Of a stretch of 64,000 bases of DNA, positions 24,985 to 51,904 are shown in pieces. Positions within the stretch are counted from its first letter, which is position 1, and each line of letters begins with the position of its first letter. The DNA is from Trypanosoma brucei. Taxonomy: Eukaryota. The translations under genes were made by a program, and so were the position numbers. The stretch lies in NCBI GenBank assembly GCA_000002445.1, contig CH464491.1, positions 896,001 through 960,000 on the forward strand, in the 5' to 3' direction. The notes below the pieces were generated by a model that was not told the DNA's origin, made no database searches, and was given only the letters and a program-made list of their open reading frames with translations.

Positions 24985-26435
24985 ATGAGGAATAAAGTTA
25001 CCAATTACAAGAGGCAAAAAAGGTGGAAAGATGTGTGTGAATACTTATGCACACAGATGTATATATGTCTATGTATACGAGTTGTGGGGATATGTTGAGA
25101 TTTTTGTGCTTTCGTATGGCTATGAGGCTGCCCCATTTTTTAATCATTAACCCCCCCCCACCGAAAGATAGATGCCCCTTGATGAATATTTTGTATTTTT
25201 TTCCGTTTGTCACTGTGTTTAGTCCACATGGATGGATTACGGGGGGTGATGTTTGACCTTGTTTGACATTGTCGCCTACTATTTTCGTGCAGTGACGGCA
25301 CTGCGGATACCATTATTAGAGCTTCATTCTAATTTTTTTTATTTGTAGAGGAGGCTCTTTCGTAGTCCTCTGTGTACCCACGTGCAGCACACACGCGTTG
25401 CGTGGGCGTGCCTGGGGATGTGCCACCGTTCCGTGGTTGATGATGTTCTCTGTAACTGAAACTGTCCAACCCACTGTTCGCTTTAATTTGATACTTTTCT
25501 CGTTTCATTCTTTTTTTTTTTGCGTTGTGGTGTGACCGCTCCTTTAGGTGGAGCAATCAAAATGTTTATACCTCTCTAGGTTATAGTTTCGTGTCCCTGT
25601 TTATATACGTGTACGCATGCATGTGTCTCCTACAGGGAGACAGGGGTCGCGTCCGCTGAGGGTGATGCATTGCTGTGTCGTATGGAGAGGTTCATTTGCT
25701 GCATCCCCGTTTATGTTTTTCCATGAAGCTTGAGTCGATTCACATGTGCTTCAGGGAAAGATAGCGCCTGTGGAGTGAGGGGTGGGTTGTTACACAAGCT
25801 GTACATCGCAGCCCTGGGGATCGTGTCAAATTTGTCATCTTAAGTCGTCACGTAATTTGGTGAACTATTATTGTCCAGCCTGCGTACACGTGAACGAGGA
25901 CGGTGCGCACTGCAGAGTCCCCGCATTTTGGAATGGGGTTTAAAATACGTCGCTCAATTTCACGGCAGCCGTGCTATTAGTGATGTTATTTGATTGTCTG
26001 TTACTTCACATAAATGTATATTACGTGGTTCGCCGCTTTTCGAATGTTGCGGTGGAGGACCAATATACCTATGAAGGGGGGAAATGAGCATTTGGTGATA
26101 CAATAACCATACAATTTCCCTTTTTTTTTTTTTGCGCACTGTCTGACCACCTGCTTCCGTGCAGCAGCCGTGGTGATGTAAACTTCCGACGCTATACTGT
26201 ATATCACTGTGCTAGTTCAGCGGAAGAATCCACTATTTAGTGTGTTGCCATAACTGTATTCATCGCGCTTTATTTATTTGGTAATATCGTCATATTGAAG
26301 ACACTTTCCCAGCGGGTGCTGCGACGGCCCGCATACTTCACTACGTGTACTTACCGAAACAATTTGCGCATCCTTCTTTTTTTTTCTATTCTTTTTGATT
26401 GTTGGATAGTTTATCTTTCTCTTCCGCTTGCGATC

Positions 26436-29400
26436 ATGCTGCGGCGGCTCTTCAAGCCGCAGCTGATGGTCCCTTGGTCGCGACAGCCTCCAACCTGCTG
26501 CTCCTCCCAAATAATCAATATTATTAGCCGTGGCCTTTCCCAGAGGGGGGAGCCGCTTGGTGCAGCAGCACCGTCAAGTGTGAGTTCCGTTTCCGTGCCT
26601 CCAGTGGCGTCTTTGCACACACCTGTCATGCACAGTAATGCATTTGCAGCCTCTGAGGTAAAAAAGCTACTTGCGAAGGCACAGTACTCGCTTTTCACGC
26701 TGGGGTGGAATCCAGGCACGGATGATTACTGTATTTACTGTGCCACAACAAATGAGCTTGTTCGAGCCAAGAAGGATACCCTCTGGAAAGCTATCTTCTG
26801 GATGGAGGGGCGCATTGGGGACGACTACATCGCAGGTCTTTTATTCCCCAGCGATGGGACCCCTGCACTCACGGAGGTGGCAGCTATGGTGAGAGAGAAG
26901 TGCCGCCGCCAAGTCGTTGTCGCTCCAGACACCTGGGGCATATGTTACCTGACACTTAAGAATCAACGGGACTTTGTGAGAGGGATGGAGCTCCCCGCCA
27001 GTCTTGAGCATGCCGCCTTCCTCCTTATGCGCGCGATGTTTAACTCCTCCCTGATCGAACCATCCGTGTTCGACGTCACTTCCGGTGCGTACATATCTGC
27101 TTCGTGCGCCGACTCTGTGAGTGCCGCGCGTGATTGCTTAGTAAGTTGGTGGGTGCTCTTCAATGTTCACAAGAAGTTCGGCACTTCGGGCAGCAGAAAG
27201 TTGATTGACCCTGTTGAACAAATCGTGCGGCGCGTAGTGAAGACTGTAAACGTCTTTGTGGTGGACATCAATGTGAGGGTTGGTAAGGGTACCATTTCGG
27301 AGGGGTTCACAATGATTGTCACCATCTACGATGCACAGAGGAGGTCGCAGTCAGTTCATATGATTCGTAGCTTGGCTGAAGAATCCGCGAAGCGAAATAC
27401 GTTAAACGGTTTACTGTTTGGAGAAGGGACTTCCGCTATCTCACTATTTGTCCCAACAGATCGTACAAAGTCATCACAACTCCTCGCGTTCGCGCGTAGC
27501 TGCAGGCCTTCATGCCCTTTCTTTGTAACGGAACCGTCGAGCTTGACGCCCTTCTTCTCTGGGGCCCCGGTGACTGATGGCCTCAGCGAGCAAAGTGACC
27601 CGCGCTCCACTTGGGCACTGATTCGTACCAACTGCTTCGCCCAGTGTCCTGGTAGGAGGTTGGAGGAGGTGCTAGACAGAAAGTTGTTGCAGGGGTTTAC
27701 AGCGGTCGCCAACAGGTTGTACTCTGACCGCCTGCATCGTGTCTCACCGGCACTGATGTCGGCCGCGAGTAGCATTCCCCTACGTGAGGAACCGCGTGTT
27801 GCATGGGAGCGCGTCGCCAGTCTTGTTGAAGAAGAGCGCAAAAACCCCGTTGCACACGTAAACAAGTCTGCCTTCCTCAATAATGTGACCATCACTGACG
27901 CCGAGGTTGTCTTCCGTCTGCAGCAGTGGCACTCGACGATATATGAAAGTCCCGACCGTCTGGAGCGGGAGCGAGAGGCACTAGAGGGTCTCCAGCGGTA
28001 CTTGGTCGTAGATCTTGAAACTACAACGGTACGGCGTTACAAACGTGTTGCGAATCCTTTCACCAAGGAGAACTATGTTGTGCTCTCCGGTGCCCGCGAC
28101 TACAGGGGACAAGTTTTCATGCCCAGCCGCTACTACAGCCGGAACGTTGCACTGCGTTATGACGATTTGCATGTTACCAGCACCCACTCTTTGGTTAAGG
28201 GTTCGTCTAAGCACTCTCTATTTTTACCACCATTGGATGACTACGACGTTCTTGTTGGGCACAACATCAAATTCGACTTGCTGCATATGTGGAGAGATGT
28301 GGAGCTGAGGCGTTTTTTGAAGCGCGGTGGCAAAATATGGGACACCATGTATGCCGAGTACCTTCTGACCGGTCACGAGGTGAAACTGGGTCACGGTGCA
28401 GGTTTAGAGGAGGTGGCGAAATCATACGGTGGTCAGACACCAAAACTGGATGCTGTGAAGCAAGCGTGGTCGTCGGGAAAAGACACGTGCGAAATACCGT
28501 ACCGCACTTTGACGCAATATTTGCACGGTGATTTGGAGAACACAGAACTTATTTTCAAGAAACATATAGAACGAGCACTCGCGCAGAGGCAGGTGGTCAT
28601 CATATTAGCTCGCATGGATGGACTTTTGTGCACTACCGAGATGGAATACAACGGACTGAAGACAAACGTGCAGCTGGCCTTGTCGCAAAGCAATGAGCTG
28701 ATGTGCAAAGTGAAGGAGCTACGAAGGCATCTGGACAATTCGATACCGAAAGAGATATCTATCGACTGCCGGAAATATTTCAACTGGGCGTCTAACCAAC
28801 ATCTTATTGCCTTTTTTTTCGGTGGGAAGCTGAAGTTGAGCACTAATGCACGCGAGAGCAGGCTCCTTCCTGGTGAGGTATTTGAACGCCACACGCTTTA
28901 TGCTCGTCCAGAGGACTATGATAAGACTGAGTTCCCCAAGGGTGTCTTCTTGCGGCCCCCAGTGTATGTAGTCGGGCCCGCCGACTGTCTCATGGCCACT
29001 GGTGTATCACTCGACAAAGGAACCAAATTCTTCAAAATGTATTTCGAGGCATACGTGAAACAAGCTGGTTTTAGGAAGAGTTCTTCCGTGACGGACTCTC
29101 TTAGACGTGCGATGGTTTCTGTTTCACGCATCGACCAGGAGAAGTGCAGCAACCCAGATGCACTTGTTAATTTGTTGCCGAAGCGCCACCTGTTTTTGTT
29201 TGCTGCCTTCACGCCCACAAGCGATGGGACAATAAGTAAGTTATTCCTCAAGAATGCGATAACCGGGGAATCTCTGACCATTGCAGGAGATTGTGCGAAC
29301 AAAGTGGAGCGACTGCGTGCTTTCATGGAGGGGCAGGTGGAAGCGCACACAGAGATGCTTGTCGATGCGGACGGAGACGGCAGCGCCCCAGCAAATAACA

Positions 29401-31325
29401 ACGCATTCGCCGATGCCCACATTACGATCTTAGCTAGGGATGCTCCCTTTTCGTGTGCACGGTTGCTGCATTCAGACGAAGGGATCAGCGCGTACCTGTC
29501 GTTACACGATGGCCTCAATCCCCAGGAAGATGTTGGGCAACGCTATGTCATCACTCTGGCGGATACTGTTTCCACGCTGTCGTACTACCGATATATGTAC
29601 GGATCTGATACGGAGGCAGCATACGCCGATAAAACAAAGGTTGATGAGTCGAAGTTGGTGGTGCCTATGAAGGCTCTTCCCCGGCCGTGCTCGTCAAGAG
29701 GTGCGACCTCAGAGGCATTCAAGAAGAAGCTTGTACAGGAAGCCGCAATGAAACCGGAAGATTGGTGCAATTTGTATATTGACATTTTCCTTCACATCGG
29801 GCATGCTGCTCTTTGCCGCGAATCGCTTGAAACAGAGGCTGGGTCGAAGAAGGCGCGCAAGTCCAAGGGAAAAGGTGGAATTAGGACACCCGGTGATCTA
29901 CCGATTCTTCTCCGCGAGCGTAGCGCTTTTATCGGCTACTACAACTCTCTTCCGGACGATGAACGCAAGAAACTAGCCCTCATGACTATGCTCGGGAGGA
30001 CCTGTGGTACTGCCTTTGATGCCTTTGCAGTAATGTGCTCGCATGATGACATAGTGGAGGTTAATATTGGGGGTCGCTTAAATCAGTATGTTCCCAGCCA
30101 ACTTGACGCAGAGCAGGTGATGCGCAAGTTTAGGAGCCCGACGACGCGTCAGTTGCAGGTGGGGGAGGACTCACTTACGTACTTCAAGAAAACTCATGGG
30201 GATAAAACTGCTGAGACGATTTTGGAATTACGGGCCATGGAAAAACTCATTGGTACATACTACGAGAACACTGACGATGGAACAGGAATGGTTTCACTTG
30301 TGCACGATGATGACAGTTGCATACACCACGAGCTAATACACAATAAGACTAACACTGGTCGATTGGCGAGTGCAAATCCGAACTGCCAGAACATTCCCAA
30401 GGAGGATAAATCACCGTTGCGTGAAATGTTTGTCAGCCGTTATGGCGAAAAGGGAATGTGTATTGAGGCAGATTATTCACAGCTTGAAGTCGTCGCATTG
30501 GCTGTTCTTGCGAATGATCAGCAAATGTTGGAGGATCTTCGGTCTAATGTGGATTTCCACTGCAAACGTGTTGCGATGATGCGTCCCGACCTGCAATATA
30601 CTGAGATTCTCAAGAAGGCAAAGAAGGACAAAGAACCGGAGTTTGTTAAGTTGCGTCAGCAAGCAAAAATCTTTTCCTTCCAACGACAGTATGGTGCCGG
30701 GGTTAAGATGATCAGCGAGAGTACTGGGTTAACGCAGGACCAAGTGCGCCATTTGATCGAAAAGGAGAGGGAGACTTACCGCGGGGTGGATGTCTTCAAC
30801 AGTATGGTTGCTCTATCTGCTAATAAGTTCGATGCCTCGCTGCAAAATGGCTCTCGAAATGTCCGAGGGCACCAGATTTTCAAGGGCATGTTCCCTGTCA
30901 TCACGGGTAGCCGATACATCTTCACGGAGTCCGATGTGCCAGAGGGACTACTCCGAAACAAGTCACTCGCCGTCAAATCAACTAATTTTTCTCCAACACA
31001 CCTTAAGAATTACCCAGTGCAAGGGTTTGCCGGTGAGATTGTGCAAATTATGCTTGGGGTGTTGTGGCGCCACTTCCTTCGGAAGGACAACTACGGGGGG
31101 TTAGCTGTACTAATCAACACCGTGCACGACTGCGTATGGATTGACTGCCACATGGATGTGTTGCAAGACGTTGTCTTGGAAACTGATGGAATTATGAGTA
31201 GCGTACGCGATGTCCTGAATCGTCTTTACCCTGAGATGGAGGTGTCTGTGGACTTCCCCTGTGATGTCGTCGCAGGAGAAAACATGGGCGCCCTGCGCCC
31301 CGTTGTCATTGAGGAGACACTGTGA
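26436..31325 (+). CDS. Mitochondrial family-A DNA polymerase (kinetoplast POLI-like, Pol I-related), 1,629 aa. It has a long N-terminal extension, a 3'-5' exonuclease and a polymerase domain.
   Basis: The ORF track starts at a TTG codon (26295). The first ATG is at 26436 and gives MLRRLFKPQLMVPWSRQ, an R-rich amphipathic mitochondrial presequence. Exo I DLETT sits at about 28009 and Exo II GHNIKFDLL at about 28260. Polymerase motif A DYSQLEVVAL is at about 30470 and motif B RQQAKIFSFQRQYG at about 30655. The length is in the range of the large trypanosome POLIC and POLID paralogues; I cannot tell which. Confidence 0.85.
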   Translation: MLRRLFKPQLMVPWSRQPPTCCSSQIINIISRGLSQRGEPLGAAAPSSVSSVSVPPVASLHTPVMHSNAFAASEVKKLLAKAQYSLFTLGWNPGTDDYCIYCATTNELVRAKKDTLWKAIFWMEGRIGDDYIAGLLFPSDGTPALTEVAAMVREKCRRQVVVAPDTWGICYLTLKNQRDFVRGMELPASLEHAAFLLMRAMFNSSLIEPSVFDVTSGAYISASCADSVSAARDCLVSWWVLFNVHKKFGTSGSRKLIDPVEQIVRRVVKTVNVFVVDINVRVGKGTISEGFTMIVTIYDAQRRSQSVHMIRSLAEESAKRNTLNGLLFGEGTSAISLFVPTDRTKSSQLLAFARSCRPSCPFFVTEPSSLTPFFSGAPVTDGLSEQSDPRSTWALIRTNCFAQCPGRRLEEVLDRKLLQGFTAVANRLYSDRLHRVSPALMSAASSIPLREEPRVAWERVASLVEEERKNPVAHVNKSAFLNNVTITDAEVVFRLQQWHSTIYESPDRLEREREALEGLQRYLVVDLETTTVRRYKRVANPFTKENYVVLSGARDYRGQVFMPSRYYSRNVALRYDDLHVTSTHSLVKGSSKHSLFLPPLDDYDVLVGHNIKFDLLHMWRDVELRRFLKRGGKIWDTMYAEYLLTGHEVKLGHGAGLEEVAKSYGGQTPKLDAVKQAWSSGKDTCEIPYRTLTQYLHGDLENTELIFKKHIERALAQRQVVIILARMDGLLCTTEMEYNGLKTNVQLALSQSNELMCKVKELRRHLDNSIPKEISIDCRKYFNWASNQHLIAFFFGGKLKLSTNARESRLLPGEVFERHTLYARPEDYDKTEFPKGVFLRPPVYVVGPADCLMATGVSLDKGTKFFKMYFEAYVKQAGFRKSSSVTDSLRRAMVSVSRIDQEKCSNPDALVNLLPKRHLFLFAAFTPTSDGTISKLFLKNAITGESLTIAGDCANKVERLRAFMEGQVEAHTEMLVDADGDGSAPANNNAFADAHITILARDAPFSCARLLHSDEGISAYLSLHDGLNPQEDVGQRYVITLADTVSTLSYYRYMYGSDTEAAYADKTKVDESKLVVPMKALPRPCSSRGATSEAFKKKLVQEAAMKPEDWCNLYIDIFLHIGHAALCRESLETEAGSKKARKSKGKGGIRTPGDLPILLRERSAFIGYYNSLPDDERKKLALMTMLGRTCGTAFDAFAVMCSHDDIVEVNIGGRLNQYVPSQLDAEQVMRKFRSPTTRQLQVGEDSLTYFKKTHGDKTAETILELRAMEKLIGTYYENTDDGTGMVSLVHDDDSCIHHELIHNKTNTGRLASANPNCQNIPKEDKSPLREMFVSRYGEKGMCIEADYSQLEVVALAVLANDQQMLEDLRSNVDFHCKRVAMMRPDLQYTEILKKAKKDKEPEFVKLRQQAKIFSFQRQYGAGVKMISESTGLTQDQVRHLIEKERETYRGVDVFNSMVALSANKFDASLQNGSRNVRGHQIFKGMFPVITGSRYIFTESDVPEGLLRNKSLAVKSTNFSPTHLKNYPVQGFAGEIVQIMLGVLWRHFLRKDNYGGLAVLINTVHDCVWIDCHMDVLQDVVLETDGIMSSVRDVLNRLYPEMEVSVDFPCDVVAGENMGALRPVVIEETL

Positions 31326-35547: not shown

Positions 35548-37707
35548 ATGGAGCGACAGCTTCGCGAACTCCTTGAGCAAGGAGGTTTGTCGCACACAAT
35601 TCAGGGGTTTGTCGATGGTGGTGTTCTTACCCTTCAGCAGCTTAAACAGCTCACCATGCAAGACTATCAATCTGTTGGTGTCATTGTCATGACTGACCGC
35701 CGAAAACTATTTGAGCTGATTCAATATATGAAGAGAGAGCAGGCGAACCCCCCCTCCGTATTGAACACCTCGGACGCGCCACGTGTACCCGAGCACACAC
35801 CTCAGGCCGTAACTGGTGCGCGAAACACAACGCCGAATTGCCGTAATGCGACACCCTCCAGCGCGCAACGCAAGGCGGAAAATGAGAACGCTCGCATGAA
35901 TGAAAGCAGGCAACTGTCAGGGGCGGGAGGGCGACGCGATCCACTTCATGTGATTGACGATATGGAACTCTCAGCCATGAAAATGACCCCAAACTCACGG
36001 CCACTCAGCCGTGTAGCACGCGCCTCCCCAACAGCCGCCACCCGTAAGCCTGGGGAGAGTGGAACTACTAAAAGAAAGGCAAGTCGCATCACAGTGGTGG
36101 TCCGCAAACGTCCGCTTAGCACGTCTGAGATCAATGATGGCTTATACGATATCCTTGCCACGGACCCTGACAACCTGCAGGCAATTGCCCTACTTGAGCC
36201 CAAACAGAAAGTTGACCTCACGAAATATATTGAAAAACATCGTTTCACCTATGATTTGGTTCTTGACGACAAGTACAGCAACCGCGATGTGTACGAGAAG
36301 GCATGCAAACCCCTTATTGAAACAGTGTTTGAGGGTGGGTGTGCCACTTGCTTTGCGTATGGACAAACGGGAAGTGGCAAGACATATACAATGCTCGGGA
36401 AGGGGGACCAGGAAGGTATATATCTGATGGCTGCACGTGATCTGTATGCTCGACTGGAAAGTGGGATGAGTATCATGGTTTCATTCTTCGAGATATATGG
36501 AGGAAAGTTGTTTGACCTGCTGAATGAGCGTGAGAAGCTTGCATGCCGTGAAGATAGTCGCGGTGTTATCAATGTTTGTGGCCTTACGGAACATCGTGTG
36601 GAGGATACGGGGCATCTCATGCGTGTAATCGACTACGGAAATTCCATTCGAGCGGCCGGCTCGACGGGCATGAATGCGGATTCCTCCAGGTCGCACGCTA
36701 TCCTTCACATAACGGTTTTGAATTCAAAGAACCGGTTCTTCGGTAGGTTCACCTTCATCGACCTCGCTGGAAGCGAGCGGGGTGCAGATACACTTGATAG
36801 CGACAGAACCACGCGCCTCGAAGGTGCAGAAATCAATAAGTCACTTTTGGCACTGAAGGAATGTATTCGTGCGCTGGACCAGAATCATCGGCACATTCCT
36901 TTCCGTGGTTCAAAGCTTACAGCCGTGCTGAGGGACTGCTTCACGGGGAACAGTCGCACTGTGATGATAGGCAATGTTAGTCCTGCAAGCGGAAGCTGTG
37001 AACACACCCTTAACACACTACGCTACGCTGATCGTGTGAAGGAACTAAAGAAAGACAAGTCGTCCCGCATCGCCGCCGAGGAAATCATGATTGGCCAGAT
37101 GCCAAGTGAAGAGATTGAAACACTTGGATTGAGCAGTAACTTTGCCCAAAGACGTGCCCGAGAAAAGAAGGCCGGCACCCGGTCCTCCAGTCATCTTTCA
37201 CAACGGGAACCAGGCACGCCTAACGCAAAGTCTCACAGCAGCTACGGCAGCGGCTATCGGCTCAAAGGGCAACATTCTCGCGTGTCAATGAGCTGCAAAG
37301 AGGAAGACTACCCGAACTTCTCCGACAGCATTCGCTCCGGGAAAGTTCCAAGTAGTGGAGGGACGAAGAGCTTCAACAGGGTGACACCAAAACACAGTCG
37401 TGTTGGCAGCGAAATATCGATCCGCGACGCTAGCCCGTATGAGATGACTTCTTTTGCGAGCGGTGATTCCTTAGACGAAGAAGAGGATAATACCATTCTG
37501 GGCCATCGCCGTCATATTGACGCAATGATGGAGTTATTGAAGCAAGAAATGACGGAATTGAATGGAGTAGAGATGCCTGGAGCCTCCATTGAGGTGTACT
37601 GCAAAAATGTTGAGAGCATTCTCAACCGTCAGGCGAAGAGTATTAGCAGTGTTAGAAATATGATAAGGCAGTTGCTAAACCGCCTGGAGTCTCGGCAACG
37701 CCGGTAA
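35548..37707 (+). CDS. Kinesin-13 family motor with an N-terminal SAM domain (KIF24-like architecture)
   Basis: 719 aa. Residues ~1-65 ([57 protein letters not shown]) look like a SAM domain. The central motor has the kinesin-13-specific loop-2 KVD finger ([25 protein letters not shown]), the P-loop [11 protein letters not shown], switch I SSRSHAIL and switch [10 protein letters not shown] central motor position is typical of kinesin-13. Confidence 0.85.
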
Positions 37708-39894: not shown

Positions 39895-42800
39895 ATGAGG
39901 CGAGTACATCAGATTCCCTGTAAAAAACTGTTTAGGCAGTTGGGGCGTAGGGGAATATTATCCACACCGCCATCGCCAGTGGAGTCAGCAGAACCCACAA
40001 CCATCCGCTCAAGGGGCTACGGACCCAGTAAACATTTACTGCGCGGTGTTGACGCGACACGCGGCGTCGTTGTGGAAGCAGCCCTCAGCCCAGCGGATGT
40101 TGAGATGCAGCGCCGCGTTCTTTCGATGGCGAATCCAAATGTGGCGATCCACGCCAAACTTGAGGGTGAGCCTTCACCCGTTCATTCTGGCACCAACTCC
40201 CTTCATGGTGACGACCAGCGTCTGGCCGACCGTGCAGGTGTTGCTTCATCGGAGCAGTTAGCCTCTGTGGCAACTGTTATATTGGATGAGGTGAAGGAGC
40301 AATTGCAGCTCAACCTCAGCGCTGCGGATGCCTCACAAGATAGTCGAGCAGCCACTGTAGTGAATGCCGTCGCGGAGTGCCTGCGGAATGAGGTGGACCG
40401 CCTCATTCACGCGAACCACACGCAGGAGTCGTCCATTACCCGAGTGTTGAGGGAAAATACAGACCTGATTTGCAAGCGCGTCGCCGATGTCATATGCTCG
40501 GAGCAGCTGAAAACACTATCATTCAAGGACGTAGGTCAACTTCCGCAGGTCATCAAAGAGGTGGGAACGTCCCTTGTGAGGTTAGAGAGCGCCTTGAAGA
40601 GTGCACTGGATTCGAGCTTTGGAAAAGACAAAAATCTCGAAGAAGTATTGGGAGATTTGCGCGAACACATTGTCTCTGCCATCGAGCAAGCCTCGCATTT
40701 CCAACAGGAGCGACTTCTCGCTTCTGTGAGTGATTTACTGGCCGACTGCGCCGATGCGCAAGACAGCAAGTCACGTTTGGCTCAGGCTGCGAGTCTGAAG
40801 GTAATCGAAAAGAACGTGAGGGATGCCATGTCACAGATGGTGGAGGACACGCAACATAAGGTCCAGTCTGTATTGCGTGACCTCCGTGGGAGTGCTTCGA
40901 CCTCTGATGCCGCTGGAAGTACGACGAACGTAAGCAGCGGTAACGAGGTGGCGTTCGAGCGAATTTTAGCATCTTACGGCGAACGTCTTGAAGAACTGCG
41001 TGAGTCAACAGCTGCGGCCGTTGACCTTAAGGAGCTTATGATGGAAATTCATAGCATGCATCAGACAAGTGCAGGAGATGTGAGTGAAGTCAAAAACCTT
41101 GTGAAGAAACTAAAGAGAGAATTGATAAGCGCTCTCCAACCCTCCAACACTGAAAACACTGAAGGCAGCACTGTGGAACGTAAGTCCAGTGACACAATAG
41201 ATTACAATGGGATTTTTGCGGATAAATTGGACGCATTGGCAGACGATGTAATATCAAGGATAGATGGGCGACTGAAGGAGCAGCACGCTGATGTGAGGGA
41301 ACTGTCGGCGAGGCTTCTCCAGCTTGAAGATGTGATCAAGAAAACTCCCCGTGCTGCTCTCCAGGTGGGGTCAGTGCCTGAGCTGAACGACGACCGGCTG
41401 CTGGCGTTGGCACAAAGTATCAGTGAGAGTATTTTATCATCTCTTCCCCCGCATTCCGCCCCCGCTGTAGAGGAAAAAGAGCAACAGGAGCCACCGCGAC
41501 CGAGCGTCAGCACAGCGGTTGCCACTACTGCACACACCTTTACAGCAACAGAGCTCGCGGAGGCTGTGTCAGCTGCTCTCACCCCGAGACTGGATGAATT
41601 GGCGGCAGCCATCCAAAAGAAAGTGGCACCTACCTCCACTGCCTCGGGCAACGAATACGACAACAGACACATGGGTGAAACACAACTCGTAACCGTCGCA
41701 CAAACGATATGTGAAGGAGTGCGGGAAGCAGTTAGGGAAAGTATGGCCCTTTACAAACCACCCGTCGCCTCACCACCCACCCCGGCCCCGGGAGCAGTTG
41801 TTGCACCAGCTGTTGACACGTCTGCCTTAGAACAGGCAATGGTGACGAAAGTGGAAGATCTCAAAAGATGCGTTATGGACGCCGTGCAGGAAATGGACCG
41901 ACCACAGGAAATTGATCTCTCGCCGTTCCGTACGTACCTCGATGATGTGCTGCGCAGCATGCAGACAACTCTGAGCAAGCAGCAGCAAGCGACACAGGAC
42001 AAGGTTGATGGTGTGGTTGAAGCGCTGGCAAAGAAGCTTCAGGATTACCAACACCAATTAGAGTCGAAACTTCAAAGGCAGCACCGAGATCAAGTGGAGC
42101 AGATACAGGTTGTGCGAAGGGCACAAGAGCAAGATATGAAAGCTGATGAAGAGACGTGGAAACAACGGATGTCCCGGAACCAAGAAGACGCCGAGCAAAG
42201 GACAAACGAGCAAAAGTCTGCTGTCACGGGGGCCATGCAAGAGGTGTTTCTGCAAGTCAGGCAGCGGCTGACAGAAGATGTTCGCACACTTCTGAAAGGT
42301 GAAGTGGCCGCTGCCCTCATACCACTCGATGACCTTTACAAAGAGTTACGTGAAAGTGGGCAAAAGTCGCGTACCGCCTTGGAGGCGAAGTTGCGTTCTG
42401 TCGAGGACACACTGCAGTCCGTCCTTGACTCTGAACGACACCGCTCAGATCGTCTACAGGCAACACTTGACGACGTTATAGCATGTATTAAAAATAACTC
42501 GGGTGAAGTGAGCGGTTCGGAAACCGAAGCGTTGAAGTCCCTTAAAAGGCTATTGGAAGACCTCGCTGAGCGCAACACCGCTACCGGAATGGAAATATGT
42601 TCTGACGTGAAGGCTTCTTTAGAACGTACAGAAGAACTTCACGTTCAAACTGCAGAGAAGATGTTGAGGGGGTTTGATACGCTGAAGTATGAGATTCACG
42701 AAGGACGGCAACAACTTGACCAGCTCCTATCGTCCAACCAGCAGAATAAAGATGTTGCACTTGCTGTCGAGGCCATGCGCACGAAACTGGACGAAGTCCG

Positions 42801-44400
42801 TTATTCCCTCGACTGCATTATGGCATCTGTCCGTGAGATGCAAGAACACCCCATGAGACAATTACAAGAGCCGCAGCAGCAGCAGCAGTCCTTACTTAGC
42901 GAAACTGAAGTGAAGAGTCCAATAGATGACAAGGTGTTGGAGCAGTATGAGCAACGACAGCGAGAGGCATCCGATTTAATTGCGTCGCGTCTCGAAACCC
43001 TCTCGGCAACAACTCGTGAGGTTCTTTCGCAACTCCAACGGCAGCAGCCACGAAGATCGGAGGAGGAGATGGGTTCGCAGCCGGCCGTAACCACAAATTT
43101 AAGTGTGGAGAGTCTGCAAGCTATGGAGGGTCGTTTAGGTGAACGCATGCAGGCATTGCAGGCTGCGCTTGATGAGCTGACAAAAGTCAGTGCCAGTGTT
43201 CCTCCTACAACAGAGGTTTTCAGGAAAGACGAGGTAGACGGTGTTGAGGGAAGCAAAAGCTTCATAAAGGAAGTTGATGAGCTCATGACGCTCGTGAAGT
43301 CGTCGCGAAGTGTACAGGCGAAGCAAATGTGGGAGAGGCTGAGCATCTTGCGCACATCTCTGGTTGATGTGAGTACGAAAAAAACTGGAGACACCAACAT
43401 TAAACAACTGTTGGGGGCTCTGGAGGAAAATCGTCTGAAGCTGCGAGAGGAAATGGGGGAAGCAGAGAGAGAATTGGTTATAAAAATTGATGCCGCAACA
43501 CAGAAAGCGGTAGAGCACTTTGCTGCTCGTATAGAGAGGGCCGTTAAGGCGTCAGCAGATGCGGGGCTGGGGCAGCTGCGCAACGATCTCAAAGAAAGTA
43601 GTGAGATATTGAAAGCACACCAGCACCAGTTTTCGTCGCAGCTGCAGGATAGAATGACTAACATAGAGAGAACAAATAGGGAGTGCGCCGCTGAGTTAAA
43701 AGAAAAGTTGCGGGACACCAGCAAGGAGTATCATAATGCTTTGGGACAGTTTGTGAAAAACGATATGATTGCAGCCCTGCGTAGTACTGTTAATGAGGCG
43801 ACTACCCAGCAGATGCGTACCTTCACGCAACAGTTCACTTGGCAAAAGGAACGAGAGGAAACGAACAAAGAGGCGGTGATGCGGAGCGTTCAACAGGTTT
43901 CCCAAGGAGTTGGCAAACTCCAATCAATGAGCAGTGAGGTACGCACAGCCGTAACCAGCAGTTCGGCAGGTGTCGTTCAGGAGGTGAGGAACGCACAGAA
44001 GGACCTCGCGGTGCTTTTCGAGAAACGGCTTGCTGCCGTGTTAGAGCAGCAGAAAAAGCAGCAAGTGGTTCAAGTATTGTCGCCTGTGCGAGTCGGGGAA
44101 GCCGATTCTTCAAACGGTATTCCAAGTGAGACCACCGACACGCCTTCGCTTGTCACGATGGTAAATCCACAGGGGGCGTCCCACCTTTCATGGTTTTTGC
44201 TGTCGCAATCGGTTGTGACTATCATCACCATCATGCTGTGCGCATACTTTTTATTTGCGGCCTTCCTTGTTGCCTTCGTGCCTATTCCACTTACTGATGA
44301 ATTTGCCTCACACATGGAGCAGGCAGCGGATAATGATGTCTCTGAAATTGCCCTCAAGAGGCCGTTAGTCTCACGTGTAGCGGACCGGGTAATTCTATAA
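39895..44400 (+). CDS. Hypothetical large coiled-coil protein (1,501 aa) with a single C-terminal transmembrane helix
   Basis: It is a clean 4.5-kb ORF with heptad-like E/K/Q/L-rich composition throughout. The hydrophobic stretch SWFLLSQSVVTIITIMLCAYFLFAAFLVAFVPIPL (about nt 44187-44292) is followed by a ~35-aa tail. The ORF length, the polypyrimidine tract upstream and the orientation matching its neighbours support it as a real gene. It has no recognisable catalytic domain. Confidence 0.6.
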   Translation: MRRVHQIPCKKLFRQLGRRGILSTPPSPVESAEPTTIRSRGYGPSKHLLRGVDATRGVVVEAALSPADVEMQRRVLSMANPNVAIHAKLEGEPSPVHSGTNSLHGDDQRLADRAGVASSEQLASVATVILDEVKEQLQLNLSAADASQDSRAATVVNAVAECLRNEVDRLIHANHTQESSITRVLRENTDLICKRVADVICSEQLKTLSFKDVGQLPQVIKEVGTSLVRLESALKSALDSSFGKDKNLEEVLGDLREHIVSAIEQASHFQQERLLASVSDLLADCADAQDSKSRLAQAASLKVIEKNVRDAMSQMVEDTQHKVQSVLRDLRGSASTSDAAGSTTNVSSGNEVAFERILASYGERLEELRESTAAAVDLKELMMEIHSMHQTSAGDVSEVKNLVKKLKRELISALQPSNTENTEGSTVERKSSDTIDYNGIFADKLDALADDVISRIDGRLKEQHADVRELSARLLQLEDVIKKTPRAALQVGSVPELNDDRLLALAQSISESILSSLPPHSAPAVEEKEQQEPPRPSVSTAVATTAHTFTATELAEAVSAALTPRLDELAAAIQKKVAPTSTASGNEYDNRHMGETQLVTVAQTICEGVREAVRESMALYKPPVASPPTPAPGAVVAPAVDTSALEQAMVTKVEDLKRCVMDAVQEMDRPQEIDLSPFRTYLDDVLRSMQTTLSKQQQATQDKVDGVVEALAKKLQDYQHQLESKLQRQHRDQVEQIQVVRRAQEQDMKADEETWKQRMSRNQEDAEQRTNEQKSAVTGAMQEVFLQVRQRLTEDVRTLLKGEVAAALIPLDDLYKELRESGQKSRTALEAKLRSVEDTLQSVLDSERHRSDRLQATLDDVIACIKNNSGEVSGSETEALKSLKRLLEDLAERNTATGMEICSDVKASLERTEELHVQTAEKMLRGFDTLKYEIHEGRQQLDQLLSSNQQNKDVALAVEAMRTKLDEVRYSLDCIMASVREMQEHPMRQLQEPQQQQQSLLSETEVKSPIDDKVLEQYEQRQREASDLIASRLETLSATTREVLSQLQRQQPRRSEEEMGSQPAVTTNLSVESLQAMEGRLGERMQALQAALDELTKVSASVPPTTEVFRKDEVDGVEGSKSFIKEVDELMTLVKSSRSVQAKQMWERLSILRTSLVDVSTKKTGDTNIKQLLGALEENRLKLREEMGEAERELVIKIDAATQKAVEHFAARIERAVKASADAGLGQLRNDLKESSEILKAHQHQFSSQLQDRMTNIERTNRECAAELKEKLRDTSKEYHNALGQFVKNDMIAALRSTVNEATTQQMRTFTQQFTWQKEREETNKEAVMRSVQQVSQGVGKLQSMSSEVRTAVTSSSAGVVQEVRNAQKDLAVLFEKRLAAVLEQQKKQQVVQVLSPVRVGEADSSNGIPSETTDTPSLVTMVNPQGASHLSWFLLSQSVVTIITIMLCAYFLFAAFLVAFVPIPLTDEFASHMEQAADNDVSEIALKRPLVSRVADRVIL

Positions 44401-45886
44401 CCTCCTTTTTTGTTCGTTTCAATCTTCCTTTTATTCTTCCACCACCTCTCACGCCCCTACATGTACACCCACATTTCATATATTTGGTGTGTAGTAAACA
44501 TTTTTCTCCCCATAGATGGGTGACATTCCAGCGTAACTACTTCGTCTTTAAGGTTGGTGTTGGCGTACGTTGGATTTGGCATGTGACCCCCTACCACTTT
44601 GTGTTGCTGGTGGCAGGCGTTGTCTTATTATTATTATTGTGTATGTGTGTGTGTATTTATGTGTTTCTTTATTTGTTTGGTGGAAAAACTTGGGAGCGAC
44701 GCCGCTGCGTTCGAAGGAACAGGGAAAGGAAACAGATAAGTATACGCCCGCTTTTTGCATTCCACTCTGTTAAATGTTCTTCCATCTTTTTTTTTGTTAT
44801 CTTCCCCCCTTATCCCTCATATATCCACGTCTGTTGCACACGTCGTCTCGTTTGCAGCCACCGGAGGCCCGTTGCGTCGACTGGTTCTGTGGGCGAGAAG
44901 GTTGCCGCAAGATGTTTTTGATTACTTCCTCTTCGTTAAACTTATTGTTTTCAGCTGTTAGTTGGTTGTATCTGGTGCCTGTTTCCTCATTTATTTATTC
45001 CGCTCTCGGTGTGATGCTCCACACATTAGTTTGAGATCATTCCCACTGACGTTGCCTTCGTATTCCGCTGATATTTTACTCTCTTGTCTTGTTTATCATT
45101 GCTTGTTTTCGCATTTCCTTTCGTCTTTATGGGGTTGTTCAAAAAAAAAAAACGAAATCAGCTAAAGGTTACTTAAAAGAAGAGGTCTAAGGAAAGTTGA
45201 GAGGGGGAGTAGCGTACGCGGTCGGGCGCAACAAAGAGAAGTAAAAGGTTAACCCTTTCTTTGTTTGAGTGCAGTGCCTTTTTCCCACGCGCACAAAAAA
45301 AAAGAAAAGAGAACCACGAAAACAAAGGGGGTGAGGAGAGTAAAGGAAATTTTTTTCGTAAAATTTAAGGCGGAGGGCGGACGAAGCGATATATACTAGT
45401 GTATTAGTAAGGAGGGAAAGACAAGAGAACATCAGTAAAGGTGGCACTCAAGGGTTGCAATTAATAGAGGAGCAGGGGAAACAAACATATTAAGTTGTAT
45501 ATATATAAGGGGAGAAACAGAAAGGCATCGGTCAGGAAAGTTGTTGCGCACGCACCACTTCGGCACGCTGTCACGAACTGTGCGTGTTTGGCGAAAAGAT
45601 CAATACACATAGAAAGCGAAAGGGAGAAGAATATTCTTTCTCCTTCCCGGGAAGGAGTACTGGACTGTTTGATTGTTCGTTTTGCACACTAGCACGCGGG
45701 TGTGAAAGAGGTCGCAGGAAAAGCGCATAAGTTAGAGTCAGAGAGGGAAAAGTGTTAGATACACTTGTTCTAATATACCTCCTTGAACATATCCACTGGT
45801 CAGGGGAGTGAAGTGAAGCAACAGTGACACGGGTTGTTTCAGTTGCGTTAATAATAGTAAGAATAGCGGCGTGAGTGGGGGGTTTG

Positions 45887-48685
45887 ATGGCAGAGGTGAA
45901 GCTTCCGCGGCCGGGCCGAAGCCCCTCCTCGGGCAAAGTCACCGTCACCACCTCTTCAAAGCGCCAAGCAAAAAGCGCCCCATTCAAATTTCTCCGCAAA
46001 GATGAGGGACGGCTTTCTTACTCGTGCACACCAGAGTCCCCAGTTTCAGTGTGTGGTAATGTTTCCCACGGTAACAGTATGACTAACCGTGAGCTCGCTG
46101 CCATGGATAGGAACAGTTCCCGCTCACTCCGCGAAGCAATAGCCAATGATATGCGCAAAGGGAAAGCTAACGATCCTTTCGGCGGCTTTGAGGTCGCGGT
46201 TCCGAAGCGGGGACCACCACCTGGCGCATCGCCGCGGGAGGAACGTGGGATGTCTCTTGAAGGGTCGCAGTTGCATGACAACGTAAGTGTATCATCCCCT
46301 CCTGCTGCCGTGCAGCACACCTCTTCCCGCCTGGCTGTGGGAGACGCTAACCATAGCGAATCCATCGGGGACAAGTCCGTCAGCACGAAACGACTTGAAT
46401 CCCGTACTTCAGACGAGTCGGAAAGAACAGTAGAACCCCAGCCACAACAACACCAGCAGCTACAGTTGCAGCAACACCAACTGCAGCAGCAGCAACAAAT
46501 GCAGTTGCAACAACAGCTACAGCAGCAGCAACAGCTACAGCTTCAACAACAACAGCAACAACTGCAACTGCAACAACAGCAGCAGCAGCAAATACAACTA
46601 CAACAGCAACAGCACCAGCTACTGCCAAACCACAGTCACCAGATGCAATTGCAAACCCAACTCCCACAGCAACACCCTCCACAAGGCTATCAACAGCAGT
46701 TGCTGAATCACGGCCAGCAGTGGCAGCACTCGCAGGTGCAGGCGCAACCGCAGCCGACGCGACAGCGTGTGAGTCCAATGAACACCAACACTTTTTCGCG
46801 GAACATCGAGGAGAGTGAGTTGGGCGACTGGTGCCCCTCGCCGGTGCAACAACGTCGGTGGAGGAACGGGGAATCGGACAACGGACATACTCGTCGGTCG
46901 ATTGCTACCCGCTACGGTGACCCAGGAGAACTAGACGGTGAATATGTGAGTGGTGGAAGGAGCCTCCGCAACTATTTTCGACCTCCGCTTCCAGAATATC
47001 ATCAGCCACGTGAGGAGGAGGAGTTGGTGGGCCAGCTGGAAGAGGAATTGCGCGTCACGAAGGAGGAGCGATCCCGGTATTATCAGCTGCGCATGCAACT
47101 GGAGCGTGAGCGGCAGCGTTTCGAGGAATACCGCTCTGGAGTGGAACAGGACATGGAGGACGAACGGGTGCGGTTGGATGCCGCACGGGCTTCGGAGCAG
47201 CGCCAGGCAAAAAAGGACGTGAAGGTAGTGGAAGAGCGGTATAAATCTACTCTCGAACTTCTCAGGACAGAGCGTGATTCAAACACAAAGCTGACACAGG
47301 AAAACGAGATGCTGCGCCAGCAACTGGAGGTGACGACAGCACGGTTGCGTGAGTCGCAGAAGCTGCAAAAGGCGGAGACGAACCGGCTGCGACGTGAGAT
47401 TGAGTCTCTGACGCGGCGGAACGAAGAGCTGTTGGAATTGGCAAGAGAACAACAACTCACAGCATTAGAACGTGGTGAGACGCTGACACCACCACTGCTG
47501 TTGCACAGCGGCCCAAATATACGACATAAAGCTTCGGCTAACAGTAGTAGCGCTCCGAGGAGCGGTGAAGATGTATACGAATTGCATGGTAGTTCACTAC
47601 CCACTAGAAGCTACTCTTCTGAGCAGAATCGTTATCTGGACATTGTAGAGAGGGAGAGGAGACTAGCGGAGGAAGAGGAGCACGAGCGGAAACGGTTGGA
47701 AGCTGAGGATAGAAGACGTGCCGAGATGGAAGAAAGGCGAAGGCGCATTGAAGCCGAGGAAGCGCGGCGTGCTAAAGAGGAGGAGGAAAGGCGAAGGCGC
47801 ATTGAGGAGGAGGACCGTCGTCGCGCCCATGAAGAGGAGGAAAGGCGGAAGCGGGTTGAAGCCGAAGACAGGCGCCGCGCTGAGGAAGCGAAGCGCAAGT
47901 CTGCGGAAGCTGAAGAGAGGCGTCGTGCTGAAGAAGAGGAAAAGCGCAAACGTGCGGAAGCGGAGAACAGGAAGCGGGTTGAGGAGGACAAGGTTAGGCG
48001 CGCAGATGCGGAAGTTGCTCCGCGGCGGAAGGTAGATGCAAAGAAGGTTGTGCGGGAGGAGCGTTCGCAGGCGATCGACGAGGGCGCAACTAGCAAGAAG
48101 CTTGAGGCACGCCAGCAGCGGCGCTCCTCCGGTCATCCTGTTTTAACTCCTCGCGCGCAGAGCTCCAAAACAGCGAATTCTGCAGTAGCAACTGCCCGTG
48201 CAGCATCGCAGGCTTGCACCTACGCAACTCGCAAAGGACGCCGCGCACCCACTGCCAGCGAATTAACCGCGGACAATGAGCCCGTTCCGGATGAAGACTT
48301 TCCGAACGATACCGTCGTGTCGCAGACATCCCTAGGAGAAAATCCCAATAAGCGTGAAGTGTTGTACCGTAGCGGGAAGCGAGAGATACACTACACGAAT
48401 GGGACTCGCAAGATTATTCTTCCCTCGAGCCACGTGATGCTCTACTTCGCAAACGGAGACATCAAACGGACATTCCCCTCAGGGAAGAGCACATATTGGT
48501 ATGCTGTGGCGCAGACGACACACACACAGTATGCAGATGGAGCTCAGGTGTTTCAGTTCCATTCTACCGGGCAAGTAGAGCGCCACTTACCGGATGGAAA
48601 AAAAGAAATTCTTTACCCTGACGGTATCTACAAGGTTGTGCATCCAGACGGTAGGGATGAAACCATTTTCCCTGACGAAAGTTGA
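45887..48685 (+). CDS. SAS-4: SAS-4/CPAP-like protein. It has a polyQ tract, an E/R-rich charged repeat region and a C-terminal TCP10_C/G-box domain.
   Basis: The ORF track starts at a GTG codon (45875); the first ATG is at 45887 (MAEVKLP). The C-terminus REIHYTNGTRKIILPSSHVMLYFANGDIKRTFPSGKSTYWY...FQFHSTGQVERHLPDGKKEILYPDGIYKVVHPDGRDETIFPD shows the repeated Y/F-x-N/D-G beta-hairpin pattern of the CPAP/SAS-4 G-box (TCP10 C-terminal domain). Coiled-coil sequence precedes it. Confidence 0.7.
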   Translation: MAEVKLPRPGRSPSSGKVTVTTSSKRQAKSAPFKFLRKDEGRLSYSCTPESPVSVCGNVSHGNSMTNRELAAMDRNSSRSLREAIANDMRKGKANDPFGGFEVAVPKRGPPPGASPREERGMSLEGSQLHDNVSVSSPPAAVQHTSSRLAVGDANHSESIGDKSVSTKRLESRTSDESERTVEPQPQQHQQLQLQQHQLQQQQQMQLQQQLQQQQQLQLQQQQQQLQLQQQQQQQIQLQQQQHQLLPNHSHQMQLQTQLPQQHPPQGYQQQLLNHGQQWQHSQVQAQPQPTRQRVSPMNTNTFSRNIEESELGDWCPSPVQQRRWRNGESDNGHTRRSIATRYGDPGELDGEYVSGGRSLRNYFRPPLPEYHQPREEEELVGQLEEELRVTKEERSRYYQLRMQLERERQRFEEYRSGVEQDMEDERVRLDAARASEQRQAKKDVKVVEERYKSTLELLRTERDSNTKLTQENEMLRQQLEVTTARLRESQKLQKAETNRLRREIESLTRRNEELLELAREQQLTALERGETLTPPLLLHSGPNIRHKASANSSSAPRSGEDVYELHGSSLPTRSYSSEQNRYLDIVERERRLAEEEEHERKRLEAEDRRRAEMEERRRRIEAEEARRAKEEEERRRRIEEEDRRRAHEEEERRKRVEAEDRRRAEEAKRKSAEAEERRRAEEEEKRKRAEAENRKRVEEDKVRRADAEVAPRRKVDAKKVVREERSQAIDEGATSKKLEARQQRRSSGHPVLTPRAQSSKTANSAVATARAASQACTYATRKGRRAPTASELTADNEPVPDEDFPNDTVVSQTSLGENPNKREVLYRSGKREIHYTNGTRKIILPSSHVMLYFANGDIKRTFPSGKSTYWYAVAQTTHTQYADGAQVFQFHSTGQVERHLPDGKKEILYPDGIYKVVHPDGRDETIFPDES
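46440..46620 (+). repeat. Imperfect (CAG/CAA)n tract. It encodes the polyQ/QL-rich segment of the SAS-4-like protein.
   Basis: The translation is QQHQQLQLQQHQLQQQQQMQLQQQLQQQQQLQLQQQQQQLQLQQQQQQQIQLQQQQHQ. Confidence 0.9.
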
Positions 48686-49725
48686 GAGAGTAGTGCAATT
48701 CCTTTACTCAATTTAGTTTTTCTTGAAATAATTACCTTGTGGTGATGCCCGTAGACCTTTTTCAGGTACTAGTCAAAATGTGCGGTGTCATAGTTAAGTT
48801 TCCGACTTATTGTATGCCATCGTTTCTCCTCCTTTCTCCGTTCTATCTCCTCTTCTCACTCTACATTTCTTTCGTTTGCTCTGAGTTATATGCACCGTCC
48901 ACGAGTTTCTGCTTTTTTTTTCTGTTTTTGAGAGGGGAATGGGAAAAGATTTTACAGCTTTGTTGCTCACACCCCATATAATTTGGATGAGTGACATGCA
49001 CTTTATTGGATACGCATAATATAAGGAGGAGCAGGGGAAGTATTTTAACCCTAATGTTATCCCCTCGCGCACCCGTTCTTTCCCCTGCTTTTGTGGGGAT
49101 TTTTACTTTCTTTTTTTATCTCTCACATCTTTCTCGTTGTTTTTTTTTTTTGGTTCATCAAGCAACATTGACTTCCCACTTACCCATGCTTCTCTCGTGT
49201 TTGTGCAGCATTTTTTTTTTTTTGTATGGGTGTGTGGCTCCCTTTTATTACTTTGAAGGATGGTTTGACTTATTGTGCGCACTCATAACCACCTTTCACT
49301 GAAGGTAAAAGGGAGGTGGCACTGGACTGGGAAGAAAAAGCGAAAGAAATGACTTTGCTTCGCTGGCACACACAAATTCTACCATTATACGATGTTTGGT
49401 ATATGTTTTTGTGTGTTTAATTGCACTTGTTCTTGTGTTGCGCTAATGTGAGGGTGCTTGGTTTTATGATTTCGATGTTTTGCTTTTTTTCTTCTTTTTT
49501 TTTATACAGGAAAAAAAAAGAGAGGAAACGTAATATAACTTCACTGTTGTCGTTATCATTTGTTTCACCATTCACTGTTTGCGTGGGCCCGACTCACCTG
49601 TGGCGTCAACGTACGCTTTATGAGTTCAATTGTGCAAGTCAGCTGTCGTTGCAATAATTGATGAGAAGCAAGTGAGATTGTGGGGGGGGGGGAAAGAAAG
49701 AAAGATAAAAAGAACGGGAAAAAGT

Positions 49726-49770
49726 TATATATATATATATATATATTTATTTATTTATATTTATATATAT
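49726..49770. repeat. Compound (TA)n / (TTTA)n microsatellite, preceded by G11 at 49682-49692
   Basis: Read directly from the sequence. Confidence 0.9.
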
Positions 49771-50223
49771 ACATGCGTGTGAGTGTGTGGGTGTATATTT
49801 ACTCCTTCTTTTGTGAGAGAAGAGACATGAGTGCGGTGTTGCGCTCAATTATTTGAGGGAAGGGGTTCACCATCGGGTATTGCTATGAAGCTGAGACAAC
49901 CTCATCCCTTTCCCCCCGTCGTAACAAAAACAAAAACAAAAAAAAACAACAAAAGTGAAAGGAATGTCTGTACTTAGTTTTTACAATATAGAAAAAAAAA
50001 CGAGAGAGAGAGAGTAGGAAACGAGGCCGATGTACTTTTTTTTTGTTGTTCTCTTAATGTTTCAGTCTCCGAAAAGTGCCTCGGGAAGGGAACACGGATG
50101 AGAGCTTAACGCTCGTATTTTCCCGTTGCTTTTCCATCCCACTTCATATTTCGTTCTTTTTGTTTGCATTCCGCCGTAAACTTTCGGTGCGGGTTGCCTC
50201 CTTCTGTCCGCTGCGTTTTTCGT

Positions 50224-50247
50224 TTGTTGTTGTTGTTGTTGTTGTTG
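50224..50247. repeat. (TTG)8 microsatellite
   Basis: Read directly from the sequence. Confidence 0.9.
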
Positions 50248-51679: not shown

Positions 51680-51711
51680 ATAATAATAATAATAATTATT
51701 ATTATTATTAT
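51680..51711. repeat. 32-nt perfect palindrome, (ATA)5A abutting its own reverse complement (TTA)5T
   Basis: ATAATAATAATAATAA|TTATTATTATTATTAT. The two halves are exact reverse complements, with the centre between 51695 and 51696. Confidence 0.9.
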
Positions 51712-51884
51712 TTCTTCCCTCTCCCACTTATTTCGCTCCTCTGTTTTCTTACACAGTGACCTTCCAATGATGTTGGTGCATCTTCAGAGACACTGCCGCA
51801 CCGCCGTCGTAGTTCCTCTGCTGAATTTTTATTTTTCAAATAATAAAGCAAGAAATAAGTTTGTAAGAATTTGTGATTGTTTAC

Positions 51885-51904
51885 ATATATATATATATAT
51901 ATAT
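51885..51904. repeat. (AT)10 microsatellite
   Basis: Read directly from the sequence. Confidence 0.9.

Follow-up and report, generated by a model that had tools for sequence, protein, structure and literature searches.

The locus and its gene

The region considered here (the window) is a stretch of 64,000 nucleotides of the Trypanosoma brucei genome, contig CH464491.1, in which all genes lie on one strand. Among them we find an open reading frame that starts with an ATG and encodes a product of 719 amino acids plus the stop codon (Table 1), which a reading made from the sequence only had described as a kinesin-13 with a KIF24-like domain architecture. Its protein is 100% identical to a T. b. 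gambiense DAL972 protein annotated as "MCAK-like kinesin, putative", and the orthologue in T. cruzi, 78% identical, is named "Kinesin-13 5". The exact 719-aa protein is also encoded in FN554974.1, a 4.5-Mb record of T. brucei chromosome 11, and it occurs beside the same neighbours in a second T. brucei assembly. TbKif13-5 was already listed as Tb11.02.0790 by Chan et al. 2010, where the antigen fragment comprised residues 545-712 (PMC2924347), and the KIN13-5 constructs published in PLoS Pathogens in 2024 included the full length protein (1-719), a SAM deletion (71-719), a CC deletion (1-642) and the motor (170-536) (PMC10863849). Given the 100% match, the equal length of 719 aa and construct boundaries that fit the anatomy found here, the reading frame encodes TbKIN13-5, a member of the set of seven T. 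brucei kinesin-13s. The gene, its SAM domain, and the localisation and function of the protein are thus already published (2010, 2024), the SAM domain having been reported in 2024 (PMC10863849). The name KIF24 has 0 occurrences in the text of the latter paper, and the additions made here are small: the homology to KIF24 of both the SAM domain and the C-terminal hairpin is made explicit, and the same layout is found in fungi without flagella and in a kinesin-13 paralogue that is nuclear.

The surroundings of the gene had been taken as suggestive of a flagellar or basal-body role, given the presence of a SAS-4-like gene and an axonemal dynein next to it. Both are real. A gene for a Tcp10_C/G-box (SAS-4/CPAP-like) protein is found at 45875-48685, and a dynein heavy chain gene at 10939-24984, with outer-arm beta heavy chains as its best non-kinetoplastid matches and near identity to the "Dynein heavy chain, putative" chain of PDB 9e5c; the dynein of the window is axonemal. 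Neither of the two genes adjoins TbKIN13-5, however, as the intervening genes encode a squalene epoxidase, a family A DNA polymerase and a coiled-coil protein of 1501 aa, and genes for TCP-1, RagA and an RRM protein are also interleaved. Assuming, rather than measuring, a frequency of ~10% for flagellum or basal-body genes, at least two of them among nine neighbours would be expected in ~22% of cases (binomial). It is well established that trypanosomatid polycistrons are not functional operons and that gene order in them does not reflect function. The neighbourhood was therefore rejected as an argument for a flagellar role, both for this chance expectation and for the interleaving of the polycistron with unrelated housekeeping genes. 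An Rfam scan of the window gave no matches.

Table 1. TbKIN13-5 and its parts, in positions of the window.
Feature	Position	Strand	Basis and remarks
Complete CDS, TbKIN13-5	35548..37707	+	ORF; 719 aa plus stop
SAM domain, aa 1-66, five-helix bundle	35548..35745	+	Pfam, PDB profile matches, AF2, Foldseek
Disordered linker, aa 67-177	35746..36078	+	Poorly conserved; basic just before the motor; without helical neck
Kinesin-13 motor, aa 178-502	36079..37053	+	Pfam Kinesin; KIF2C/Klp10A/KIF2A matches
KVD finger of loop 2, aa 221-223	36208..36216	+	Motif scan; alignment
P-loop GQTGSGKT, aa 272-279	36361..36384	+	Motif scan; alignment
KEC motif, aa 437-439	36856..36864	+	Motif scan; alignment
Disordered Ser/Pro-rich tail, aa 503-637	37054..37458	+	pLDDT <50; low conservation
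C-terminal two-helix hairpin, aa 638-718	37459..37701	+	AF2; the 'CC motifs' of PMC10863849

Domain anatomy

The full-length AlphaFold2 (AF2) model of TbKIN13-5 shows three folded modules, namely the SAM domain, the motor and a C-terminal hairpin, joined by linkers that are predicted to be disordered (pLDDT <50 over residues 67-175 and 505-638). A helical neck ahead of the motor was looked for in this region, and the model shows no helix in residues 118-180, with pLDDT <50 there; the stretch of about 40 residues preceding the motor (140-180) carries a net charge of +8. Between the T. brucei and Leishmania proteins, identity is highest in the motor (86%), followed by the SAM domain (79%), the C-terminal module (49%), the tail (46%) and the linker (30%). 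The strong constraint on the motor and its motifs is more than a passive crosslinker of microtubules would seem to need, which speaks against that kind of role.

A genuine SAM domain akin to that of KIF24

The proposal of a SAM domain at about residues 1-65 was confirmed. In a Pfam scan of the full-length protein SAM_1 scores 21.7 bits, slightly under its 23-bit cutoff, and this borderline score is probably the reason why no SAM is entered for the identical protein in its precomputed Pfam annotation. When the N-terminus is scanned in isolation, SAM_1 reaches 26.4 bits (E 9e-6; cutoff 23) and SAM_2 21.6 bits (cutoff 20.5). Searches of the PDB with the N-terminus of TbKIN13-5 returned SAM domains for every match with E <0.7, and a profile made of 61 kinesin-13 N-termini gave 68 matches at E <= 0.01, among which all those listed (60/60) were SAM-domain proteins, with Caskin-1 as the best one (1.3e-15). 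Structural models point the same way: residues 1-73 were modelled by AlphaFold2 with a pLDDT of 87.7 (~95 for the same domain in the full-length model), with helices at 3-11, 15-23, 29-33, 37-43 and 48-65, and Foldseek comparison with the PDB found SAM domains in 50 of the 50 matches listed (for EphB2, TM 0.83 and rmsd 1.7 A). Residues 1-65 of TbKIN13-5 form a genuine SAM domain.

For the comparison with KIF24, residues 1-549 of the human protein served only as the bait, and all analyses rest on database sequences that are named KIF24 at their source. Such proteins were retrieved from marmoset, camel, toad, amphioxus and cnidarians, most of them with both PF00536 (SAM_1) and PF00225 (Kinesin). 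The SAM of TbKIN13-5 aligns directly with that of KIF24 over residues ~5-66 in both proteins (phmmer, E 1e-7 to 1e-9). Moreover, a profile built only from the SAMs of eight holozoan KIF24s gives TbKIN13-5 a score of 55.7 bits, versus at most 45.2 bits for the solved SAM chains, a value reached by a chimeric chain through two stretches (the best single-stretch score is 40.5).

These results bear on the possibility, raised together with the SAM proposal, that the N-terminal helices form a bundle by chance or convergence and have no kinship to the SAM of KIF24. Such a reading could draw on the sub-cutoff score of the full-length protein and on the SAM-less precomputed annotation. It is opposed by the agreement of Pfam, PDB searches, AF2, Foldseek and the KIF24 profile on a SAM fold, by a sequence that is nearer to the SAMs of KIF24 than to any solved SAM, and by the same N-terminal position of the domain in ~200 kinesin-13s from Discoba, Holozoa and Fungi. 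The idea of a convergent or chance bundle is effectively refuted, and we give it hardly any credence. Instead, the direct alignment and the KIF24-only profile, combined with the hairpin shared at the other end of the protein (see below), argue for a three-module layout that is common by descent and not convergent, and the SAM of TbKIN13-5 is homologous to that of KIF24 through shared ancestry, which makes the architectural claim right, and stronger than it was first put.

The motor and its phylogenetic position

The central position of the motor noticed at the outset is borne out by the Pfam Kinesin match, which covers residues 186-499 of 719 (E 3e-95). The nearest solved motors are those of KIF2C/MCAK, Klp10A and KIF2A (~1e-103, 344-352 bits), compared with 1e-61 for kinesin-8, whose member KIF19 scores ~210 bits. 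The loop-2 KVD finger, also claimed from the beginning, is present, and its V222 and D223, as well as K437, E438 and C439 of the KEC motif, are invariant across an alignment of 55 sequences. In the same alignment, G272, Q273, T274, G275, G277, K278 and T279 of the P-loop are invariant and S276 nearly so. The motif scan also found SSRSH at 379 and DLAGSE at 405, and altogether P-loop, switch I, switch II, KVD and KEC are kept in TbKIN13-5 and invariant or nearly so among the 55 sequences, and the catalytic motifs of the enzyme are intact.

Complete KIF24 motors score 329-390 bits and those of KIF2/MCAK ~350 bits, an overlap such that pairwise similarity cannot assign the subfamily and a tree is needed. 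We built a neighbour-joining tree of 40 taxa and 321 columns, with 200 bootstrap replicates and no outgroup, which left out KIN13-2, -3, -4a/b and -6, as they fall outside the top 120 matches. The mammalian KIF24 models P0121 and P0122 were dropped for their fragmentary motors (91 and 153 bits), and the primate fragment P0124 was used. The tree gave support of 84% to a holozoan KIF24 clade, 100% to KIF2/MCAK/Klp10A, 85% to a heterolobosean clade and 95% to a euglenozoan one, within which the KIN13-5 and KIN13-1 subclades reached 99% and 95%, respectively. The fungal SAM-bearing kinesin-13s group together with less than 50% overall, with 100% for a core of chytrids and Rozella and 97% for Rhizopus plus Mortierella. 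TbKIN13-5 falls within the euglenozoan clade as sister to the KIN13-1 lineage in this unrooted neighbour-joining analysis, outside the KIF2/MCAK (13B) clade and also outside the holozoan KIF24 clade, so that the placement of its motor with KIF24, as expected from the architecture, was not sustained.

The KIN13-5 and KIN13-1 subclades each have their own members from Bodo and prokinetoplastids, which indicates a duplication inside Euglenozoa and before the kinetoplastid radiation. Previous work had placed KIN13-1 to -5 with Kif24 in Kinesin-13A, and traced them back to one kinesin-13 gene that was duplicated in a lineage-specific manner (Wickstead et al. 2010). Our motor tree agrees with that study. 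In these terms, TbKIN13-5 is a co-orthologue of KIF24 and not its 1:1 orthologue, and it is of the Kinesin-13A type, lying outside the 13B clade and lacking a charged helical neck.

A C-terminal hairpin shared with KIF24

At the other end of the protein, the full-length model shows two helices, 638-674 and 681-718, with pLDDT values of 85-97, that pack as a hairpin in which four residues (H653, M661, E667 and Y684) do not vary among the 55 aligned sequences. A hairpin profile made only of protist sequences finds 75 of the 111 proteins collected with the KIF24 bait, and hits the extreme C-terminus of the KIF24s of Stylophora, Actinia, Bufo and Acropora with 33-39 bits. The C-terminal hairpin is thus conserved across SAM-bearing kinesin-13s, KIF24 included. 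Searches of the PDB with the C-terminal 76 aa as a single sequence gave chance matches only, and a C-terminal profile aligned with residues 652-717 of full-length KIF2C, the corresponding position, at E = 0.5. This value is not significant and gives no ground for a C-terminal domain common to all kinesin-13s.

A probably ancient layout

A SAM-like N-terminus together with the C-terminal module is present in ~110 of the 120 best-scoring kinesin-13 relatives, among which the N-termini from Naegleria, Andalucia and Euglena exceed the Pfam cutoffs for SAM. The KIN13-1 lineage has both modules in diverged form, its SAM reaching just 15-20 bits; the paper on TbKif13-2 gives no domain description. 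Proteins with a SAM and a kinesin-13 motor also occur in the Mucoromycota Rhizopus, Mucor and Mortierella, a group of fungi without flagella. The occurrence of the layout in KIN13-1, a nuclear and mitotic protein, and in non-flagellated fungi indicates that it is ancestral and no predictor of a ciliary role, and the three modules were probably inherited from an early eukaryotic ancestor. The KIF24-like architecture proposed for this gene has to be corrected in this sense: its SAM and hairpin are homologous to those of KIF24, but the combination of a SAM with a kinesin-13 motor is an ancient layout spread over Discoba, Holozoa and Fungi, which is neither specific of KIF24 nor predictive of a cilium.

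Function of KIN13-5 and alternative readings

The published data on KIN13-5 draw a picture centred on the tips of the cell. At first it was seen in the cell body or escaped detection, and endogenous tagging later located it at the FAZ tips and the posterior tip, with a weak signal at the basal body (PMC10863849). FPRC is an interaction partner and acts upstream of KIN13-5 (PMC10863849). When KIN13-5 is silenced by RNAi, the cleavage furrow is misplaced, division becomes asymmetric and polyploid cells arise, and the posteriors are blunt, with microtubule ends that are splayed and unbundled (PMC10863849). The same study reported no defect in basal-body duplication, no increase of 2N1K cells and no significant change in the lengths of flagellum and FAZ, and the absence of intensive YL1/2 staining at the posterior of the RNAi cells indicated that no extensive assembly of new microtubules took place (PMC10863849). 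In vitro, recombinant KIN13-5 behaves approximately as an octamer when full length, approximately as a tetramer when the SAM is deleted and approximately as a dimer after the CC deletion (aa 1-642). The full-length protein bundles microtubules and does not depolymerise them, in the same assay in which KIN13-1 does; the isolated motor does not bundle, and the SAM deletion still does (PMC10863849), which makes the contribution of the SAM to bundling only quantitative. The missing depolymerase activity rests on protein from E. coli and on heterologous tubulin (PMC10863849).

Altogether, the SAM and the C-terminal hairpin most likely drive self-association of KIN13-5 into higher oligomers, and the oligomeric, multivalent protein would crosslink microtubule ends at the cell tips, thereby fixing where the cleavage furrow starts and ends. 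On this view, a kinesin-13 head would become a bundler through the valency of the oligomer. We regard it as fairly likely that TbKIN13-5, a three-module Kinesin-13A protein without the neck of MCAK, oligomerises and crosslinks microtubules in this way to set the furrow. Two aspects could be of interest for specialists in kinesins: the hairpin whose loss leaves KIN13-5 as an approximate dimer is also found at the end of KIF24, and a motor with fully conserved depolymerase motifs has been reported to bundle microtubules and not to depolymerise them.

A different possibility is that KIN13-5 works, like KIF24, as a depolymerase at the basal body or flagellum, where it would limit the growth of axoneme or centriole microtubules. 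The SAM, motor and C-terminal module in common with KIF24, the intact KVD, KEC and ATPase motifs, the weak basal-body signal (PMC10863849) and the activity of other Kinesin-13A members in the flagella of Leishmania, Giardia and Chlamydomonas are all compatible with it. Nevertheless, the RNAi cells showed neither a rise in 2N1K nor a significantly shorter flagellum or FAZ, and no depolymerisation was obtained in vitro with a setup in which KIN13-1 was active (PMC10863849). Moreover, the paralogue at the flagellar tip of T. brucei is KIN13-2, and the partners of KIF24, CP110 and CEP97, are reported to be restricted to Metazoa (PMC3144413). The layout itself is equally found in the nuclear KIN13-1 and in Mucoromycota without flagella, and synteny is no argument where the polycistron includes genes for squalene epoxidase, DNA polymerase, TCP-1 and RagA as well. 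Such a role is quite unlikely, and the flagellar or basal-body function put forward from the sequence finds no backing in the localisation, with the FAZ and posterior tips as main sites and only a weak and dispensable basal-body signal, nor in any basal-body or flagellum-length phenotype or depolymerase activity (PMC10863849). In an even more doubtful variant, KIN13-5 would keep an ancestral, KIF24-like restraint of microtubule extension at the distal end of the (pro-)basal body until the flagellum grows out, without CP110/Cep97, and this role would have escaped notice in the RNAi cells, either through a knockdown that was not complete or through redundancy within the set of seven paralogues. 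If this were true, the control of the distal end of centrioles by kinesin-13s would predate the metazoan capping complex, and an oligomer of SAM, motor and hairpin would be the ancient core of that system.

It has also to be considered that KIN13-5 is a true depolymerase in vivo, which would trim or organise plus ends at the cell tips, bundling alone being an artefact of an unmodified recombinant protein. The strong conservation of the motor and of the depolymerase motifs fits with this idea, as does the case of Kif24, for which phosphorylation by Nek2 raised depolymerisation more than two-fold and is needed for full activity; furthermore, KIN13-5 sits where the plus ends of microtubules converge (PMC10863849). 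On the other hand, the recombinant protein bundled microtubules and did not shorten them, and the posterior ends of the RNAi cells were splayed and unbundled, without intensive YL1/2 staining (PMC10863849), so we consider this explanation unlikely. Crosslinking of microtubules by an oligomeric KIN13-5 is the reading that we favour, and the original observation on this gene can be summarised as correct in what was seen, over-read in its function, and already known.

Comparison with known systems

TbKIN13-5 and KIF24 share an N-terminal SAM, a motor with KVD and KEC and a helical module at the extreme C-terminus, in the same order and homologous, and both belong to Kinesin-13A in the classification of Wickstead. 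They differ in that the motor of TbKIN13-5 lies outside the holozoan KIF24 clade, and in their activities: KIF24 is a microtubule depolymerase that keeps ciliogenesis suppressed at the mother centriole, with partners, CP110/CEP97, that are metazoan-only (PMC3144413), whereas KIN13-5 bundles microtubules and acts in cytokinesis. Within T. brucei, the closest term of comparison is TbKIN13-1 (Tb09.160.2260), from the sister lineage in Euglenozoa, with a homologous though diverged SAM-like N-terminus (only 15-20 bits) and C-terminal module. Unlike TbKIN13-5, however, this paralogue is nuclear and associated with the spindle, behaves as a dimer and depolymerises microtubules in vitro. As for the Kinesin-13B proteins MCAK/KIF2C, KIF2A and Klp10A, the likeness is in the motor (~350 bits), in KVD and KEC and in the second tubulin-binding site, whereas they form a separate clade (100%), have a positively charged helical neck and carry no SAM, with a tudor domain at the position of the SAM in KIF2A (PMC10863849), and the similarity of their C-terminus to the hairpin of TbKIN13-5 is not significant (E = 0.5).

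A C-terminal module shared by SAM-bearing kinesin-13s

Besides its N-terminal SAM domain and kinesin-13 motor, KIN13-5 of T. brucei (Tb11.02.0790) ends in a two-helix hairpin (see table). This module is conserved among discoban, fungal and holozoan kinesin-13s that carry a SAM domain, including proteins named KIF24, in which it lies at the extreme C-terminus. Loss of this hairpin was reported to reduce the KIN13-5 oligomer to approximately a dimer (PMC10863849). In the literature examined we found no description of such a module in KIF24, and a comparison with full-length KIF2C gave a match at the equivalent position that was not significant (E = 0.5).

At the other end of the protein, a SAM-like N-terminus is still recognisable, albeit strongly diverged, in orthologues of the nuclear, mitotic paralogue KIN13-1 (database proteins P0109 and P0095), which reach about 15 bits with Pfam SAM_1. 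A profile built solely from KIF24 SAM domains scored them at 18-20 bits, whereas KIN13-5 reached 55.7 bits. This suggests that constraint on the KIN13-1 SAM was relaxed or altered after the duplication.

Neighbouring genes

Features of the window (nucleotide positions)
Feature	Position	Strand	Remarks
Dynein heavy chain ORF	10939-24984	+	4681 aa
Large family A DNA polymerase	26295-31325	+	3'-5' exonuclease domain
KIN13-5 two-helix hairpin	37459-37701	+	C-terminal, aa 638-718
1501-aa protein	39895-44400	+	apparently coiled-coil for most part
SAS-4/CPAP-like protein	45875-48685	+	C-terminal Tcp10_C (G-box) match
CAG/CAA (poly-Q-coding) repeats	46445-46622		within SAS-4/CPAP-like gene
54-nt repeat	47728-47880		within SAS-4/CPAP-like gene

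The true start of the dynein heavy chain is probably residue 24 of the ORF, since the 4658-aa chain of PDB entry 9e5c, named 'Dynein heavy chain, putative', matches from end to end; among named proteins, Chlamydomonas ODA beta, DNAH17 and DNAH9, all of them beta heavy chains of the outer arm, matched best. The family A polymerase, with an ORF of 1676 aa versus 1629 aa in the annotation, where DUF8342 and DUF8343 also appear as precomputed matches, may belong to the kinetoplast (mitochondrial) Pol I-like enzymes. For the 1501-aa protein the sole Pfam match was apolipoprotein-like and sub-threshold, and a hydrophobic segment close to its C-terminus may be a tail anchor. The stretch at 48686-55830 (~7 kb, with a low GC of 0.36-0.39), in which we found neither an ORF of at least 150 aa nor an Rfam match, is an unusually long intergenic region for its polycistron.

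The SAM plus kinesin-13 layout in fungi

Proteins combining SAM and kinesin-13 domains, often automatically named 'kif24', are encoded both by chytrids and by non-flagellated Mucoromycota, as exemplified by Rhizopus (P0163), Mucor (P0203) and Mortierella (P0198). Because it also occurs in these non-flagellated fungi, the layout known from the metazoan centriolar KIF24 is not tied to cilia or centrioles.
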